Below the pieces are notes generated by a model. It did no database searches. It was given only the letters and a program-made list of their open reading frames with translations, and was not told the origin of the DNA. Positions 3,424 through 64,000 of a DNA stretch of 64,000 nucleotides are shown in pieces. Both the position numbers and the translations under genes were made by a program. The stretch is from Nitrospirota bacterium (GTDB lineage: Bacteria > Nitrospirota > UBA9217). The DNA lies in NCBI GenBank assembly GCA_963737155.1, contig CAVTRN010000001.1, forward strand, positions 1,408,001-1,472,000, written 5' to 3'. The first letter of the stretch is position 1; each line of letters begins with the position of its first letter.

Positions 3424-3575
3424 CCCTTCCTTTGGGCACGAGGCCTTAAGAACGAGGGGCGCGCATATATTGCTGATACTCCGAGAGCTTGAGTCGTTTT
3501 TCTAGCTGGTTCGAGAAATCCCTTGCTGTCCTTGTCATTGTATTTTCCACGTGTCATGTATCATCGCCCTACTCT

Positions 3576-4322
3576 ATGCAAAAAGAAAAAATAATCGGGA
3601 TCAATCCCATACGGGAAGCGCTCAGAGCAGGACGCCCCATCCAACGGCTTCTGATTGCCGAGCAGCGGAAGATGGACCGGGATGTTGCGGAGATCATCCG
3701 TATTGCCAGGGAGAAGGGGATAGAGATAAGAATCGTCACCCGGGATGCTCTGAACAGGGAATCTCAGAATTCCCGTCATCAGGGGGTGATCGCCATGGCA
3801 TCGGCGCGCACCTACGCAACACTTGAGGATATTATGCAGATACCGGCGCATCGCGGCGCACAGCCGCTGTTCCTTATTTTGGACGGCGTTGAAGATCCCC
3901 GGAATCTAGGCGCCATACTGAGGACGGCAGAAGCGGCAGGGGTGCATGGTGTGATAATCCCTGAACGACGGGCGGTCGGGCTCACGGAAACCGTCGCAAA
4001 AACCGCCGCCGGAGCATTGGAGTATGTACCGGTGGTCAAAGTGGTGAATATCGTAAATACCCTCGGGGAACTGAAAAAAGCAGGCATGTGGGTGACCGGC
4101 GCGGAGGCCGGTAGTGAGTTGGTCTACTGGGACGCGGACTTTGCGCGGCCGACGGCGCTGGTGCTCGGTGGCGAAGATAAAGGCGTGCGCAGACTGGTCA
4201 AAGAGCACTGTGACTACCTCGTGTCTCTGCCGCTTATGGGGCAGATAAGCTCCTTGAACGTTTCGGTGGTGGCGGGAACTCTGCTGTATGAAGTGTTGCG
4301 CCAGCGCAGGGGTATACGGTAA
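3576..4322 (+). CDS. rlmB: 23S rRNA (G2251-2'-O)-methyltransferase RlmB/TrmH family
   Basis: LDGVEDPRNLGAILRTA, GGEDKG, SLNVSV SPOUT motifs; ATG 3576 is the likely start; conserved position after cysS. Confidence 0.93.
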   Translation: MQKEKIIGINPIREALRAGRPIQRLLIAEQRKMDRDVAEIIRIAREKGIEIRIVTRDALNRESQNSRHQGVIAMASARTYATLEDIMQIPAHRGAQPLFLILDGVEDPRNLGAILRTAEAAGVHGVIIPERRAVGLTETVAKTAAGALEYVPVVKVVNIVNTLGELKKAGMWVTGAEAGSELVYWDADFARPTALVLGGEDKGVRRLVKEHCDYLVSLPLMGQISSLNVSVVAGTLLYEVLRQRRGIR

Positions 4323-4396
4323 AGAGTTCCCATAAAACGGACATCAGCATGGAAACACATCTATTTCTAAACATCTAACTACCTAATCTTTTTTAC

Positions 4397-4426
4397 TTGA
4401 CAAGTCAATACGCAATCTCTTATAAT
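4397..4426 (+). promoter_or_regulatory. sigma70 promoter of the tRNA-tuf operon
   Basis: TTGACA-N18-TATAAT. Confidence 0.75.
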
Positions 4427-4540
4427 TACAGTTCTTTGGCGCGGCAGAACAAACACGCACAAATTAAGCATTATTAACAAATGAGCAGCATGATCCGGAT
4501 AGGAACATGCATGTACGGCGTGGTATTTTCAGAGGGTTCT

Positions 4541-4616
4541 GCCACCGTAACTCAGTTGGTAGAGTAGCTGATTTGTAATCAGCCTGTCGGGGGTTCGAGT
4601 CCCTTCGGTGGCTCCA
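4541..4616 (+). tRNA. tRNA-Thr(TGT)
   Basis: Cloverleaf; anticodon arm GCTGA-TTTGTAA-TCAGC; GGTTCGAGT T-loop; encoded CCA. Confidence 0.97.
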
Positions 4617-4721
4617 TTTTCTGGCAACCTTATTCGAGAAGCAGGTTTTGAAAGCGGTTCCCGAACATTTTTTGTAGTGGTGTAGGTGCAGTTCTAGAAC
4701 GGCTGAAGTATTGAAGTTCCC

Positions 4722-4807
4722 GGGGAGGTGCCCGAGTGGCCAAAGGGAACAGACTGTAAATCTGTCGGCGTCAGCCTACGGAGGTTCGAAACCTCCCCTC
4801 CCCACCA
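4722..4807 (+). tRNA. tRNA-Tyr(GTA)
   Basis: GGGGAGG/CCTCCCC acceptor stem, ACAGA-CTGTAAA-TCTGT anticodon arm, long variable arm, CCA. Confidence 0.97.
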
Positions 4808-4890
4808 ATTGTAAATAAGGATCGAGGATTGATCGCGGAGTGCGGATTTGGAAGCGGGAAATCTGTAAGCCGTAATCCGATATCGAAAAA

Positions 4891-4967
4891 GCGGGAATAG
4901 CTCAGCTGGCTAGAGCGCAAGCCTTCCAAGCTTGGGGTCGCGGGTTCGAATCCCGTTTCCCGCTCCA
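4891..4967 (+). tRNA. tRNA-Gly(TCC)
   Basis: GCGGGAA acceptor stem, CAAGC-CTTCCAA-GCTTG anticodon arm, CCA. Confidence 0.97.
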
Positions 4968-5062
4968 GTTTCTAGAGTTGTGAGTCTATAAAGTTTTTTG
5001 AGTTCATCGGATTCGACTCAATGAACCCTCGAGATTCGTAACTCAACAAACTCAGAAAATCC

Positions 5063-5138
5063 GCCCATGTAGCTCAGTTGGTAGAGCACATCCTTGGTAA
5101 GGATGAGGTCAGCGGTTCAATCCCGCTCATGGGCTCCA
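5063..5138 (+). tRNA. tRNA-Thr(GGT)
   Basis: GCCCATG acceptor stem, CATCC-TTGGTAA-GGATG anticodon arm, CCA. Confidence 0.97.
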
Positions 5139-5221
5139 GACAATTAGTTATTCAGGTCTGTTTAGTAATTTTTTGTACGGGCCAATCGCAATCTTTCACT
5201 TCGCGGCAGGAGGGGTAAAGT

Positions 5222-6421
5222 ATGGCAAAGGCAAAATTTGAGAGGACAAAACCTCATGTGAACGTGGGAACCATTGGCCACGTGGACCACGGCAAAACGA
5301 CCTTGACGGCCGCCATCACGAAGGTGCTCTCCTTCAAGAACATGGCGAGCTTTGTATCCTATGACAACATCGACAAGGCGCCGGAAGAACGGGAACGCGG
5401 CATCACAATCGCCACGGCGCATGTTGAATACTCGACAGAGAACCGGCACTATGCCCACGTCGACTGTCCCGGCCATGCCGATTACGTGAAGAACATGATC
5501 ACGGGGGCGGCGCAGATGGACGGAGCGATCCTGGTGGTATCTGCCGCCGACGGTCCGATGCCCCAGACCCGCGAGCACATTCTTCTCGCCCGTCAGGTAG
5601 GCGTGCCCTATATCGTCGTCTACATGAACAAAGTAGATATGGTGGACGACCCCGAGCTGATCGAACTCGTCGAGCTCGAGATCCGGGAGCTTCTATCCAA
5701 GTACCAGTTCCCAGGGGACAAGACCCCCATTGTCAAGGGAAGCGCCCTGAAGGCGCTCCAGAGCGACAGTAAGGACGTCAACGCGCCTGAGTACAAGAGC
5801 ATCCTGGAGCTGATGGCGGCTGTGGATAGCTACATACCCCAGCCGAAGCGCGACGTCGATAAGCCCTATCTGATGCCGATTGAAGACGTGTTCTCTATCG
5901 CAGGCCGCGGTACGGTGGTGACGGGCAGGATCGAGCGCGGCATCGTGAAGGTTAGCGACGAAATTGAGATTGTCGGAATCAAGCCGACGCAGAAGACGGT
6001 AGTGACGGGCGTGGAGATGTTCCGGAAGCTTCTGGACCGGGGCGAAGCGGGCGACAATGTCGGCGTGCTTCTCCGCGGTACCAAGAAGGAAGACGTGGAG
6101 CGCGGGATGGTTTTGGCGAAGCCGGGCAGCATCACGCCACATACGAAATTCAAGGCTGAGGCGTATATTCTCACGAAGGAAGAAGGTGGCCGACACACGC
6201 CGTTCTTCAACGGCTATCGTCCGCAGTTCTATTTCCGGACGACGGACGTGACGGGCGTGGTAAAGCTTGCCGAGGGAGTGGAGATGGTGATGCCGGGCGA
6301 CAACATGACCTGCAGCGTCGAACTCATCACCCCGATCGCCATGGACCAGGGCCTGCGCTTCGCCATCCGTGAAGGCGGCAGGACCGTGGGCGCCGGCGTT
6401 ATCACCGAAGTGATCGAGTAA
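5222..6421 (+). CDS. tuf: elongation factor Tu (copy 1)
   Basis: [28 protein letters not shown]. Confidence 0.99.
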
Positions 6422-58511: not shown

Positions 58512-59144
58512 ATGAACTCTCTCGCCACTAAACCGTAAGAACGATTGTAGCGGGGGTTTCAAGGTTCCCGACGGAGGCGACCTGGAGGCATTTGCCCTCA
58601 TACTGTCTTACTTCCATCTCCCCGCGCGTGACTTCGGACCGTTCCGGCCCTAGTTGCTGCTTTTTCTTTAACCGCATGGCACGCGTTGTTTGCATTACAG
58701 CAATCTCGCCGGCAACCAGCATCTGGGTTCCCCTGTTTTTGACAGAGCGGGATGCATTAAAGTCGGCGTTTGCTGCAAATCCGCAGCGTTGGCATTCGAA
58801 TATCGCCTGAGATTGGAGATTATTAAGGTGAGTGTGCAAACGGTTCGAACACGCCTACGACGTGCCGTGTGGCGGGACGACTATGACGAGCTTGTTTTCT
58901 CTTCTGGCTATGTAGGCGAGGCGGTGAGCAGCTTTATATTGCCCCAGAGGACTCCAAAATCGTTTTATTGAGGCCTGACTTGGCGGCAGCTCCGTTGGGA
59001 AGGCATGTACTGGTACCATTTTCCGCTAGTTTAGGTTCCGGTGCTTTGGTTATGTTCTCGCCTTTAAGATCCTCTAATACAATGCTCTGCATCGGAATCT
59101 ATATATCCCCCCTCTGGGAGACGGGGTTTTTTTCGACATGGATG
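58512..59144 (-). mobile_element. internally deleted IS605/IS1341 element retaining the 3' part of tnpB
   Basis: Minus strand: TTAT target, guide AAAA plus hairpin CCCCGTCTCCCAGAGGGGGG; right end GAAA, hairpin, TCAT. Confidence 0.8.
58528..59092 (-). pseudogene. tnpB: tnpB C-terminal remnant
   Basis: IVLEDLKGENITKAPEPK..LPNGAAAKSGLNKTIL (RuvC-II), frameshifts, then FECQRCGFAANADFNASRSV (Zn knuckle/RuvC-III). Confidence 0.85.
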
Positions 59145-60685: not shown

Positions 60686-61159
60686 CTATTCAACGATCGT
60701 CACCACCATGCCCGCCCCCTGTCCCGCGATCCTTCCTGCGACTGTGCCGAGTACATTCTTCGGTGAGTGATGGGATCTCCCTACGACGATGGCCCGGCAG
60801 TTGCTGTCCTTTGCCTCTTCGAGGATACTGTCGGCAACATCCGTCGAGTCGGACACAAATTTCGTCCGGATTCTTGCGGTCGGCATCCCCTTTGCGGTAA
60901 GCGTATTCACGGCCTTGCTAAACAGCGGTTCTATCTTGGCCTTCTGAGCGAGAAGCCATTTATCCACGACCTTAGATCGATCCTGCTTCTCATCATCGGA
61001 CAGGATATGTCCCTCATCCCAGAAAATCGCGGGAAGGTTCGGGAGCACATGCACGAGGCTGACTTCCAAATCGTCGTCAAGGCCGAATTGCTGTGCTACA
61101 TATTCAACCGCTTTCATGGCGCTCTGTGATTCATCCAATGCTATCAGCATCTTTGTCAT
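60686..61159 (-). CDS. universal stress protein (UspA family)
   Basis: KMLIALDESQSAMKAVEY, LVHV, ILEEA..IVVGRS..LGTVA. Confidence 0.9.
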   Translation of the reverse strand: MTKMLIALDESQSAMKAVEYVAQQFGLDDDLEVSLVHVLPNLPAIFWDEGHILSDDEKQDRSKVVDKWLLAQKAKIEPLFSKAVNTLTAKGMPTARIRTKFVSDSTDVADSILEEAKDSNCRAIVVGRSHHSPKNVLGTVAGRIAGQGAGMVVTIVE

Positions 61160-61306
61160 TTTTCTTCCTCCAGGGTACTTTTATTGTAGCGTCGGATCAG
61201 GGCCGATAGTCGCGGCTGTCGCCCGAAAACACCATATATAATGAGGATAATATATCCTGAGGGAAAAGGCAAGGGCGGTTCTGGAAAAAAAAGAAGGGGA
61301 AAACCG

Positions 61307-61657
61307 TTAATATGTGCCGTCACCCTGAATCGATCGCACGAACTGCTCCGCAAGCCGTCCGTTCCTGCCCCCAGCAGCAAGGGCCCACTGGATCGCGAGT
61401 CGCTCAAGCTTGTTCCCGTCCATGCGGACGCCATACTTCGTAGCGTAGGATGTGACTATCTCCAGGTAGGTATCCTCGGAAAAGTGGTAAAAGCCAAAGC
61501 GCAGGCCGAAACGATCCACAAGCGAGATCTTCTCCTCCACCGTATCGGAAGGCCGAATCTCGTCGCTGTCATTGTCCGAGAACCTCGTGGTGATCAGATG
61601 TTTCCGATTCGATGTTGCATAGAACAGTACGTTTGCCGGGATTTGTTCCAGACCGCC
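61307..61657 (-). pseudogene. 3' half of a DUF815-family AAA+ ATPase gene, interrupted by the transposon
   Basis: GGLEQIPANVLFYATSNRKHLI..DTVEEKISLVDRFGL..YLEIV..GRNGRLAEQF; the family match stops abruptly at the TGT transposon end. Confidence 0.88.
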
Positions 61658-61848
61658 TGTCACAAACAATAATAAAAGAGACTGATAGTAATTTTATATT
61701 TTAATTAACCTATTGTAAATATGAATTAAAATAATTAACCATATCCTTGCCAATACAAAAATAATACATTATATAATTAAACTATAACATAATATAACGA
61801 TACAACATTTAATATTAACAATATATATTGATAACAAGTTGCAGTAAG

Positions 61849-61877
61849 TTGACAATAATATTATTTTCATTTATAAT
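61849..61877 (+). promoter_or_regulatory. tnsA promoter
   Basis: Perfect TTGACA-N17-TATAAT; the ATG begins 7 nt after the -10. Confidence 0.75.
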
Positions 61878-61883
61878 TAAATC

Positions 61884-62558
61884 ATGCCAGCACGCAAAAT
61901 ACGCAGAAATTACAGGTCGGTAACTGGAATTTTCCCCAGCATATTCAAAAATGGTCGGGGTGTCGCTTACGAGTCCCCTTTGGAGAGGGATTTTTTTACT
62001 CTATTGGAGTTCGATGATAATGTGAAAACATATGAGGAGCAACCAGTGAAGATACTTCATAAGAAGGGTCGAAAAACGATACCCTATTACCCCGATTGTC
62101 TCATTACTTACATACCCGAAATAAAGCGAAAGGATCTTCTCCTGGATGTCAAGGATACGGACACTATTGAGAAAACTAAAGATGATTACGAATATAGGCG
62201 TGATGTCGTCGCGCGTTACGCAGAAGAACACGGACAAGATTATGCAGTTTTTACAGAGAAGGAAATCCGGACAGTGTACCTTAAAAACGTGAAGTTTCTC
62301 TATCGCTTCGCTCGTGCTCCACAGAATCTCAATGAAGTGCAAATGATGATCAAGGGCAGCGGGGTTGCTGGTGCGCTTCTTGCCGTAAACGAACTTCTTG
62401 CAAAGTTGACACCGGACAAGAAGCGACAAATGGAAATACTACCTTCAATTTGGCATCTTGTGTGTATCAAAAAGATATCTACGAACTTAGACGATAAAGA
62501 ACTAAATATGAAATCCATCCTGAATGTAACCAATGATACGCGACAACGGCAGAGATGA
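61884..62558 (+). CDS. tnsA: Tn7-like transposase endonuclease subunit TnsA
   Basis: RKIRRNYRSVTG, ESPLERDF, EEQP, YYPD..DVK (PD-(D/E)xK), TEKEIR, C-terminal IWHLV. Confidence 0.92.
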   Translation: MPARKIRRNYRSVTGIFPSIFKNGRGVAYESPLERDFFTLLEFDDNVKTYEEQPVKILHKKGRKTIPYYPDCLITYIPEIKRKDLLLDVKDTDTIEKTKDDYEYRRDVVARYAEEHGQDYAVFTEKEIRTVYLKNVKFLYRFARAPQNLNEVQMMIKGSGVAGALLAVNELLAKLTPDKKRQMEILPSIWHLVCIKKISTNLDDKELNMKSILNVTNDTRQRQR

Positions 62559-62756
62559 CGAAAAAAAAGACAGTACATGGTAAGCGCTTCTCGGTGTGAC
62601 TGTTTGGTACTAATCGGCAGTAACAGATTAGCATATCCCGTTTTGACTGTGTTCGCCGATCCGTGGAGCAAATCGTCAGGATAGATATGGCTTACATCGA
62701 AAGGCGCTAAATGCTGCGGTTGATACTCAGTAGATAGTCGTTCCTGAGGTTATAAT

Positions 62757-64000
62757 ATGGGCTTAGTATCCTTCACACCTGGAAGTATAGTTTATTCGGG
62801 AAAAGACCGTTATGAGGTAGTGGCAACATCTGATCTCAAGAACGTTTTGGTCAAAAAATCGGACACAGGCGAGAATAAAATCCTACCCGTTGCTTCCTTG
62901 AGATCTACTCCCGAAGAGGATAGCCCAGCAGACAGCGGAATCAGTACTGTTGGGCACATCGATGACAAACTATGGGCATTAGCTCTTTGGCGTCAAGAAG
63001 TGATTAAACCTCTTTTGAAGAATGGACGCACCAAAAGTGAGGTTATCGCACGTGCGAAACATTTTGAAGTCAGTCCGGTAACTGTCTACCGATGGATTGC
63101 CGATTTTGAGACTACAGGCACTACCAGCGCCTTGGTTCCGAAATACGATCAGCGTGGAGGCAGCGGAAAAACCAGATTTAACAAAAATGGGGAAGAAATT
63201 ATCAGTGCAACCTTGACAAAACTTTACCTTAACAAACAACAGTTGAAACCCACGAAAGTATACGATGAAATAAAAAGACTTTTTTCTCTCGCCAAGCTTA
63301 CCCCACCTCACATGAATACGATGATTAACAGAATCAAAACGTTTTCTAACAGGGAAGTGGCGGCGGCCCGTAAAGGCAAAAAATGGAGTCAAGACCACTT
63401 TGAGGAAAAAACAGGGCATTATCCAGGAGGCAAGTATCCGCTTGATGTCATACAGATCGATCACACCATGCTTGATGTCCATATTGTTGATGAGAAGCAC
63501 CGCGAGGTATTAGACCGTCCATGGCTCACGGTCGCAATCGATGTATTCTCGAGGGTGATCGTTGGTTTCTATATATACCCGGACCATCCAAGCTATTTCT
63601 CTGTGTCCCAATGCCTCGCCAATGCGTTTCTACCAAAAGACAAGTTTTTAAGATCAGTCAATGTCGAGGGCAACTGGGATGTCTGGGGCCGACCTTTTTC
63701 GATCTTCGCCGATAACGCCTGGGAGTTTCAGGGGGTCAATCTTAAGAGAGTATGCGCTGAATACGATACAATTCTTGAATGGCGACCAGTGAAGCACCCG
63801 GAATACGGCGGACATATTGAGCGCCTTTGCGGTACGCTTAACAATGAGATACATAGCCTGCCAGGAACGACATTTTCTAACATCCAAGCTAAAGGACAGG
63901 CGTATAACTCAGAGAAAGAAGCTGTAATGACAATCGCCGAACTTGAACATTGGTTCACTGATCTCGTAGTAAACACTTATCACAAAAGACCTCATTCAGG
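62757..64000 (+). CDS. tnsB: Tn7-like DDE transposase TnsB (TniA), runs off window end
   Basis: Manual translation MGLVSFTPG..SPVTVYRWI (HTH)..PLDVIQIDHT..RPWLTVAIDVFSR..ADNAWEF..YGGHIERLCGT..LPGTTFSN..YHKRPHS; not in the ORF track. Confidence 0.93.
   Translation, partial: MGLVSFTPGSIVYSGKDRYEVVATSDLKNVLVKKSDTGENKILPVASLRSTPEEDSPADSGISTVGHIDDKLWALALWRQEVIKPLLKNGRTKSEVIARAKHFEVSPVTVYRWIADFETTGTTSALVPKYDQRGGSGKTRFNKNGEEIISATLTKLYLNKQQLKPTKVYDEIKRLFSLAKLTPPHMNTMINRIKTFSNREVAAARKGKKWSQDHFEEKTGHYPGGKYPLDVIQIDHTMLDVHIVDEKHREVLDRPWLTVAIDVFSRVIVGFYIYPDHPSYFSVSQCLANAFLPKDKFLRSVNVEGNWDVWGRPFSIFADNAWEFQGVNLKRVCAEYDTILEWRPVKHPEYGGHIERLCGTLNNEIHSLPGTTFSNIQAKGQAYNSEKEAVMTIAELEHWFTDLVVNTYHKRPHS

Follow-up and report, generated by a model that had tools for sequence, protein, structure and literature searches.

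A very large Tn7-like transposon inserted in a DUF815 ATPase gene of a Nitrospirota bacterium

Is the gene for a DUF815 AAA+ ATPase a dedicated attachment site of a Tn7-like transposon, or was it hit by such an element only once? The question is raised by the right-hand end of a 64,000-nucleotide stretch of a Nitrospirota bacterium genome (the window; C1:1408001-1472000 of source genome G000), where part of a DUF815 gene abuts a transposon end followed by tnsA and tnsB. An earlier note on the window proposed that a lineage related to Tn6022 had been retargeted from comM to DUF815 by a selector with a new specificity encoded further along the contig. Only the first 2.3 kb of the element fall inside the window; the rest lies further along C1. 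A 97,143-bp Tn7-like transposon sits in the Gly-Gly codons of the chromosomal DUF815 gene, with the sequence CCGCC duplicated. It is a new and very large Tn7-like member, from a Tn6022-related branch without TnsF. Its position probably reflects a one-off insertion by a lineage devoid of a fixed chromosomal site, and probably not the use of a dedicated DUF815 site.

Borders of the insertion

The 3' half of the DUF815 gene, from the Gly-Gly codons to the stop codon, occupies positions 61307..61657 of the window on the minus strand (Pfam PF05673, E-value 1.7e-41, profile positions 132-247 of 249), which bears out the antiparallel ATPase described in the earlier note. A family search of the whole genome located the missing N-terminal half 97 kb away (C1 1566791-1567198, minus strand, profile positions 3-138). 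This 5' half, beyond the window and on the minus strand, extends from C1 1566806 to about 1567294, and the joined frame is open. The transposon starts with a tnsA-proximal end of 226 bp (61658..61883, plus strand), which is AT-rich, begins with TGTCACAAAC and reaches up to the start of tnsA. By eye, its first 31 nt look like the end of L023, a relative presented below.

The near junction reads ...CCAGACCGCC followed by TGTCAC..., and the far junction ...CTATGACA followed by CCGCC and GTCCATGATCG. The element therefore spans C1 1469658-1566800, or 97,143 bp, with termini TGTCAC... and ...TGACA (that is, TGT...ACA) and a 5-bp target-site duplication, as expected of a Tn7-like transposon. One copy of CCGCC is found at 61653..61657 (C1 1469653-57), where it had been predicted from the window alone, and the second at C1 1566801-1566805. 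The far end is arranged as had been anticipated, with ...ACA preceding CCGCC and the 5' half of the DUF815 gene from C1 1566801 onward.

When the element and one CCGCC were removed in silico, a single open DUF815 frame was obtained, reading ...KTIMDGG and then LEQIPANVLFYATSNR... across the junction. The empty site exists in G087, a genome of the same genus, where the left flank ends at position 6344 of locus L061 and the right flank begins at 6345, with one CCGCC and conserved neighbouring genes on both sides. The restored frame and the base-exact contiguity in G087 establish a real insertion with exact borders. In the direction of the gene, the residues around the break read ...MDGG and then LEQ...; the Gly-Gly codons are indeed those that are split, although the motif does not read LEGG, as it had been named.

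The terminus at 61658 is fixed independently. Contigs of four metagenome runs were compared to window positions 61000-64000 with a likeness of at least 85. A contig of 1,786 nt from run X2 is 93.5% identical over 61658-62609, and its homology to the element begins at exactly 61658 and runs inward. It is preceded by 834 nt unrelated to DUF815; the last 30 nt of this flank have no match in G000, nor could a gene be read there. At the other side, the open frame runs from DUF815 into the far end of the element, which encodes a 78-residue tail. The single foreign match of this tail is the protein P0067 (79% identical), and the homology starts where the far terminus was placed. The other part of P0067 is the end of an NhaA antiporter (profile positions 315-369 of 374), and the element concerned abuts the 3' end of nhaA.

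The element has a G+C content of 0.438, compared with 0.495 in the remainder of the genome. Tn7-like transposons carry arrays of TnsB-binding repeats in both ends. The two ends of this element have little in common beyond TGTCA(C/T)A, the 7- to 9-mers common to both being no more numerous than in shuffled sequences. The far end contains two ATTGCAACT units that, by eye, are positioned like two ATGAGACT units of the far end of the element in genome G170.

Transposition genes and relatives of the element

The transposition genes lie beside the near end, and 86 open reading frames (ORFs) of the element were scanned against Pfam. The gene tnsA (61884..62558, plus strand) encodes the 224-residue endonuclease subunit of a heteromeric transposase (Tn7_TnsA-like_N, E-value 1.6e-7; Tn7_Tnp_TnsA_C, 2e-6); its match to TnsA_like of NCBIfam is below the cut-off. 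It is followed by tnsB (62757..64000, plus strand), of which the first 414 of 652 codons are in the window and which ends at C1 1472715. HTH_28 and a weak rve domain were matched, and Mu-transpos_C in the full protein. Sequence and Pfam domains thus confirm the TGT end at 61658 followed by tnsA and tnsB, and the pairing of a TnsA endonuclease with a DDE-type TnsB. Residues D235, D319 and E355 of TnsB, invariant in 14 of 14 relatives, form a candidate DDE triad, which we take to be the catalytic one.

Downstream, in the same operon, are a regulator gene, tnsC, of the TniB type (302 residues, C1 1472699-1473607, PF05621, E-value 4.5e-68) and a short tniQ (C1 1473699-1474796, PF06527, E-value 7.2e-19), which belongs to the TniQ/TnsD family. 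TniQ has 365 residues when counted from the first of the start codons listed, and the frame stays open further upstream, for 397 codons in all. The ORFs after tniQ encode proteins of 136 and 96 residues and an HNH protein. The Pfam scan revealed a single tnsABC set, no second one being present, and no Cas family; CRISPR arrays were not searched for. No protein the size of TnsD was seen after tniQ or among the 86 ORFs, nor any CxxC-rich ORF in the element besides TniQ. A TnsF, which in Tn6022 combines zinc fingers with an inactive tyrosine-recombinase fold and is encoded in an operon with tniQ, was not found in the G000 genome by tblastn (best E-value 0.6), a search of low sensitivity that used the single 492-residue TnsF of relative L028 and no TnsF profile. 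Reading downstream for tnsC, tniQ, tnsF and cas genes, as the earlier note had suggested, therefore yielded the first two, tniQ in a short form, and neither of the others.

The start of tniQ (C1 1473600-1473720) has an unusual layout. There is no in-frame ATG or GTG upstream, and the conserved N-terminal TniQ motif (..RLRPENSELLSSWLARTIYGH) is nonetheless encoded in frame. The sole upstream ATG is one base out of frame and lies on a run of four G. The same layout is present in L043 (positions 2540-2670), a 90%-related contig from an independent assembly, whose upstream stretch differs by synonymous changes. A -1 slip or a non-canonical start may account for this layout.

Closest to the far end, on the strand opposite to tnsABC, lies a gene for a 574-residue protein (C1 1564848-1566572), which begins about 230 bp inside the terminus. 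The protein itself has no match in Pfam or NCBIfam. Homologues are found 15-35 kb from tnsA, also on the opposite strand, in G170 (40% identical) and in genome G343 (38%), and the family comprises 137 clusters in a library of 1.84 billion proteins. When a 60-member profile of the family was run against the PDB, the only matches were weak ones to Tn7 TnsE chains (E-values 0.02-0.6), in the C-terminal domain, and 11 of the 60 members reach TnsE_C of Pfam, with a best E-value of 2.3e-9. From its placement in G170 and G343 together with these profile matches, the protein is assigned as a remote TnsE homologue; Tn6022 likewise has one on the opposite strand near its far end. The only candidate selectors beyond the window are the short TniQ and this TnsE-like protein. 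As there is no recognizable TnsF, TnsD-size protein or cas gene, the expected selector with an evident new specificity did not materialize.

Two scans with TniQ alignments recovered 16 distinct TniQ relatives from species genomes (6 loci and 10 loci, respectively). In ten of them (L026, L027, L028 and L052-L058), the sequence that flanks the tnsA end is the 3' portion of comM, reduced to a remnant of 27 residues in L052. Pfam analysis of four of these comM flanks showed the Mg_chelatase (comM) profile cut at position 91-93 in every case. Four relatives sit elsewhere: L023, in G170, within the gene of a YgaP-like membrane protein; L024 and L025 within a gene for an S-adenosylmethionine (SAM) methyltransferase; and L060 downstream of the stop codon of a gene. 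The remaining two (L051, L059) are on contigs without the tnsA end. The nearest genomic relative is L023, with a TniQ 48% identical to that of G000, the identity to the comM-flanked L026-L028 being 34-40%. The closest relative on a long contig is the metagenomic L043, the sole relative found by the metagenome scan. Its TnsB is 90% identical; the contig starts inside tnsB, and the tnsA end is missing. Further close relatives are P0002 (TniQ 78% identical, on a 16.4-kb contig), P0004 (on a 48-kb contig) and P0067 (on a 7.8-kb contig). The tniQ of L043 is interrupted (3438-6004) by a 2.5-kb insertion with two ORFs of 527 and 248 residues, and L043 carries cargo unrelated to the G000 cargo. A TniQ search of 64 genomes of the host family returned G170 only. 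No relative was found in viral contigs or by a single-protein TnsB scan of the contigs of species genomes.

A tree of TnsB and TnsC with 14 rows was computed by a quick search, SH-aLRT values being the only measure of support; one Campylobacter concisus copy was kept, and L027, L056, L051 and L059 were omitted. G000 groups with L043 (89% identical), then with L023 (support 99), nested among comM-flanked rows. L024 and L025 form a second non-comM pair, beside the comM-flanked L026 and L052 (support 98). These two share 84% identity over the stretch that begins in the target fragment and includes tniQ, and they interrupt the same codon of methyltransferase genes that are themselves only 59% identical; their neighbourhoods and cargo are unrelated to each other. 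The methyltransferase is the only site seen twice among the non-comM relatives. The element is a member of a TnsF-less Nitrospirota branch, nested among Tn6022-like elements that insert in comM.

The TnsF-like ORF deserves mention for the comM-flanked relatives as well. None was seen after tniQ in nine of the ten, within at most 10 kb, by ORF listing and tblastn with one TnsF. The exception is L028, with a zinc-ribbon-rich ORF of 492 residues. At the C. concisus loci L027 and L056, the sequence stops about 0.1 kb beyond the match to tniQ and could not have revealed a TnsF. No far end could be located within the L055 locus, and a complete comM element without TnsF is not claimed. Should the observation in nine of ten be confirmed, the targeting of comM would not require the published accessory protein, and these relatives are worth checking against the published view that TnsF reads comM.

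The designation 'Tn6022-like' holds for kinship, given the ten comM-flanked relatives, the tree, the short TniQ and the TnsE-like gene, and fails for the comM target and for TnsF. With Tn6022/AbaR, the element shares the order tnsA-tnsB-tnsC-tniQ beside one end, the TGT ends, the 5-bp duplication, the interruption of an AAA+ gene at Gly codons and the position in the tree. According to PMC10293859 and PMC11014353, it also shares a short TniQ (365-397 residues here, 369 in Tn6022) and a remote TnsE-like gene on the opposite strand near the other end. It differs in that TnsF (orf3/tniE) was not found after tniQ, nor in the genome by the one-query tblastn, and in its target, which is DUF815 instead of the conserved site near Walker B of comM. 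The G000 genome, which is 100% complete, has no comM detectable by tblastn or PF01078.

With Tn7 of Escherichia coli, the common features are the heteromeric TnsA/TnsB, an AAA+ regulator of the TnsC type, a TniQ-family protein, a TnsE-like protein and the 5-bp duplication. In Tn7, TnsABC with TnsD directs insertion to attTn7 downstream of glmS, and TnsABC with TnsE to replicating DNA. By analogy, the TniQ-family and TnsE-like proteins would provide the element with two potential target pathways. The differences are that TnsC is of the short TniB type (302 residues), that the insertion disrupts a gene whereas Tn7 lands downstream of one, and that the TnsE-like gene is outside the operon. Moreover, TniQ lacks the long DNA-binding C-terminal part that TnsD has (PMC10293859). 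CRISPR-associated transposons differ by their Cas proteins, of which the 86 ORFs contain no family. The relatives L024/L025, L023 and the element adjoining P0067 have the same module set with TnsE-like homologues, similar ends and no TnsF that could be found; they differ in their insertion sites (methyltransferase, YgaP-like gene, nhaA 3' end).

DUF815 as a landing site

A DUF815 flank was found in 0 of the 16 TniQ relatives, so that the predicted recurrence at the same DUF815 codon was not observed, all readable flanks being elsewhere. In the sub-lineage of the element, the four readable insertions are at four different places. As far as the data go, relatives thus sit at unrelated sites, the outcome that the earlier note had itself named as contradicting its proposal. 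The intact DUF815 genes of G170 and G343 are unused by the elements of these genomes, and the intact comM of G170 is also left empty by its element.

On the target side, DUF815 is carried by 106 of 401 Nitrospirota genomes, and G000 is the only one with this split. The other partial matches are in G103 (a contig break with a 16-nt overlap), G224 (a contig edge), G209 and G164, the latter being one short match. In G209, of the same family, DUF815 is cut about 8 codons upstream by a different insertion sequence (IS) of the TnpB type (L040, G209:C6, about 387100). In G103 (end of L038 and start of L039) and G224 (start of L041), both of the same genus, the contigs break in DUF815 16-55 nt upstream of the site, and the gene runs uninterrupted across the insertion site itself; these breaks may be due to chance or to strain heterogeneity.

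A junction pattern, TGACA followed by 0-6 nt and the coding sequence of GG-L-E..P..N.LFYAT, had no match in 185,579 species genomes; it is blind to ends that do not read TGACA and to diverged orthologues. Among short DUF815 C-terminal fragments from a collection of 5.8 billion proteins, 18 of 37 were inspected and none begins at the junction. In metagenome runs X1 and X3, a DUF815 gene about 90% identical reads straight through the site; the organisms are relatives and not the same strain. No literature was found that contains both 'DUF815' and 'Tn7', and insertion at DUF815 is not reported in the literature searched, although the supplementary locus tables (PMC10293859, PMC8649781), which were outside the search, may list such sites. 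With no recurrence in genomes, protein fragments or relatives, and with the X2, P0067 and L023 insertions elsewhere, the proposal of DUF815 as a new attachment site was not upheld.

As the closest relatives sit at other places, the insertion is probably a single event, and the more ordinary picture is favoured, in which a very large defence island of the Tn7-like kind entered a conserved, apparently dispensable gene a single time. The structure of the element, its duplication and the exact empty site were observed directly, and the pathway can be proposed from knowledge of the family. In a cut-and-paste reaction, TnsA and TnsB would cut the element out and attach it to target strands cleaved 5 bp apart. 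The TniB-type TnsC would couple the transposase to a target signal, which would come from the TniQ adaptor or the TnsE-like protein. The route to DUF815 was probably the TnsE-like pathway, untargeted transposition by TnsABC, or a TniQ of low specificity. The TnsE of Tn7 is described as reading lagging-strand replication structures (PMC4678854), and low-level untargeted TnsABC transposition is reported for Tn6022 (PMC11014353). The GC skew places the origin of replication near C1 0.74 Mb and has the fork at the insertion site moving toward higher coordinates.

Several observations weigh against a one-off insertion. The site is not near the replication terminus inferred from the GC skew, unlike the TnsE events of Tn7, which prefer the terminus (PMC4678854). 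It looks like a designed site of the Tn7 type, in a conserved and apparently dispensable gene and at invariant Gly codons, and the 23-58 bp beside the tnsA-proximal end encode NVLFYATSNRKH, the least variable block among the homologues seen. TnsD uses glmS, and TnsF uses comM, in a like manner. The pair L024/L025 shows that site-specific retargeting occurs in the clade, and the relatives found elsewhere may have arisen through the second, TnsE-like route, on plasmids for example. Finally, the tnsA end of L043, the closest relative on a long contig, is not available for comparison.

Most of these observations speak for a dedicated site, which is the foremost alternative, though an unlikely one. 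The TniQ, alone or with an unrecognised partner, would bind the LFYATSNR-coding block of DUF815 and direct insertion about 25 bp away, at Gly-Gly and in one orientation, a lineage of the comM type having been retargeted to another AAA+ gene. The geometry resembles that of the comM insertions, in which the tnsA end likewise borders the 3' portion of the interrupted gene in antisense, with the break at Gly codons and a conserved block close by. The host has no comM, the sister relative L023 in G170 ignores an intact one, and the CCGCC site is the same in G087, hence conserved within the genus. If DUF815 is a true attachment site, a protein-guided target would be added to the Tn7 repertoire, and a compact selector would be indicated. 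The absence of recurrences, the position of the closest relatives with readable flanks, the intact DUF815 genes left unused in G170 and G343, the shortness of TniQ and the failure to find a DNA-binding accessory such as TnsF all argue in the opposite direction.

A broader version, which we consider unlikely, is that the TnsF-less Nitrospirota branch repeatedly evolved new specificities by means of its short TniQ, from comM to the methyltransferase, DUF815 and others, the TniQ of G000 recognising the LFYATSNR block. If true, the branch would amount to a natural collection of compact Tn7 selectors, retargeted and functioning in the absence of TnsD-size domains, TnsF and Cas proteins.

It is very unlikely that the specificity for comM was kept and that DUF815 served as a look-alike in a host devoid of comM. 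Both this junction and that of L026 read GGCGGTC...: the flank ends in the same 7 nt (GACCGCC) as the comM flank of L026, and a right-aligned comparison by eye gives 15 matches in 27 positions. However, when a weight matrix built from eight comM flanks was run over the site-restored genome, the DUF815 site ranked 14,224th of 9.48 million positions for a window of 30 nt and 989,853rd for one of 66 nt. The nearest relatives are also at sites without likeness to comM, and the comM of G170 is empty.

That the region is not one element, and is instead two or more elements or a rearranged region bounded by the tnsA end and an unrelated TGT...ACA end, is extremely unlikely: the dissimilar ends, two identical inverted IS copies and an intact DUF815 paralogue inside would fit such a mosaic, but they are outweighed by the identical 5-bp duplications, the exactly restored DUF815 frame, the exact contiguity of the flanks in G087, the family's TnsE-like gene at the far end, the coincidence of the far terminus with the start of the P0067 homology, the gap-free alignment, by eye, with the far end of the G170 element, and the lower G+C content over the whole element.

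Cargo and neighbouring sequences

The remaining ~90 kb of the element are cargo, constituting a defence and competition island. Restriction functions are represented by an Mrr-type nuclease and a type IIG restriction-modification protein. PD-T4-3 (E-value 2e-103) and a dCTP deaminase (E-value 2e-80) are present, together with a ubiquitin-like E1/E2/JAB set, a CapP-like protein with an HTH partner, NACHT and HepT proteins and two Rhs toxins. The cargo also includes several IS elements, among them copies of host ISs.

An intact second DUF815 gene is found in the cargo (C1 1551492-1552286, minus strand), about 42% identical to the split one over the shared part. It belongs to a same-strand run consisting of a deaminase (306 residues), a 132-residue ORF, DUF815 and a 150-residue ORF, with a NACHT protein adjoining. 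The other Nitrospirota genomes listed with a full-length DUF815 have one copy each. The paralogue may compensate for the split gene or may be a member of a defence operon.

Two 100%-identical inverted copies of a Mutator/IS256-type IS of 1,524 bp lie at C1 1506362-1507885 and 1560998-1562521, and could allow inversion of the intervening 53 kb. One copy splits a TonB-dependent receptor gene of the cargo. In the whole genome, this IS has 11 copies. Outside the element, 2.5 kb to the left of DUF815, a 103-residue ORF (58528-58839 of the window, minus strand) has CxxC motifs and a C-terminal part with a TnpB-like look (..CQRCGFAANADFNASRSVKNRG..).

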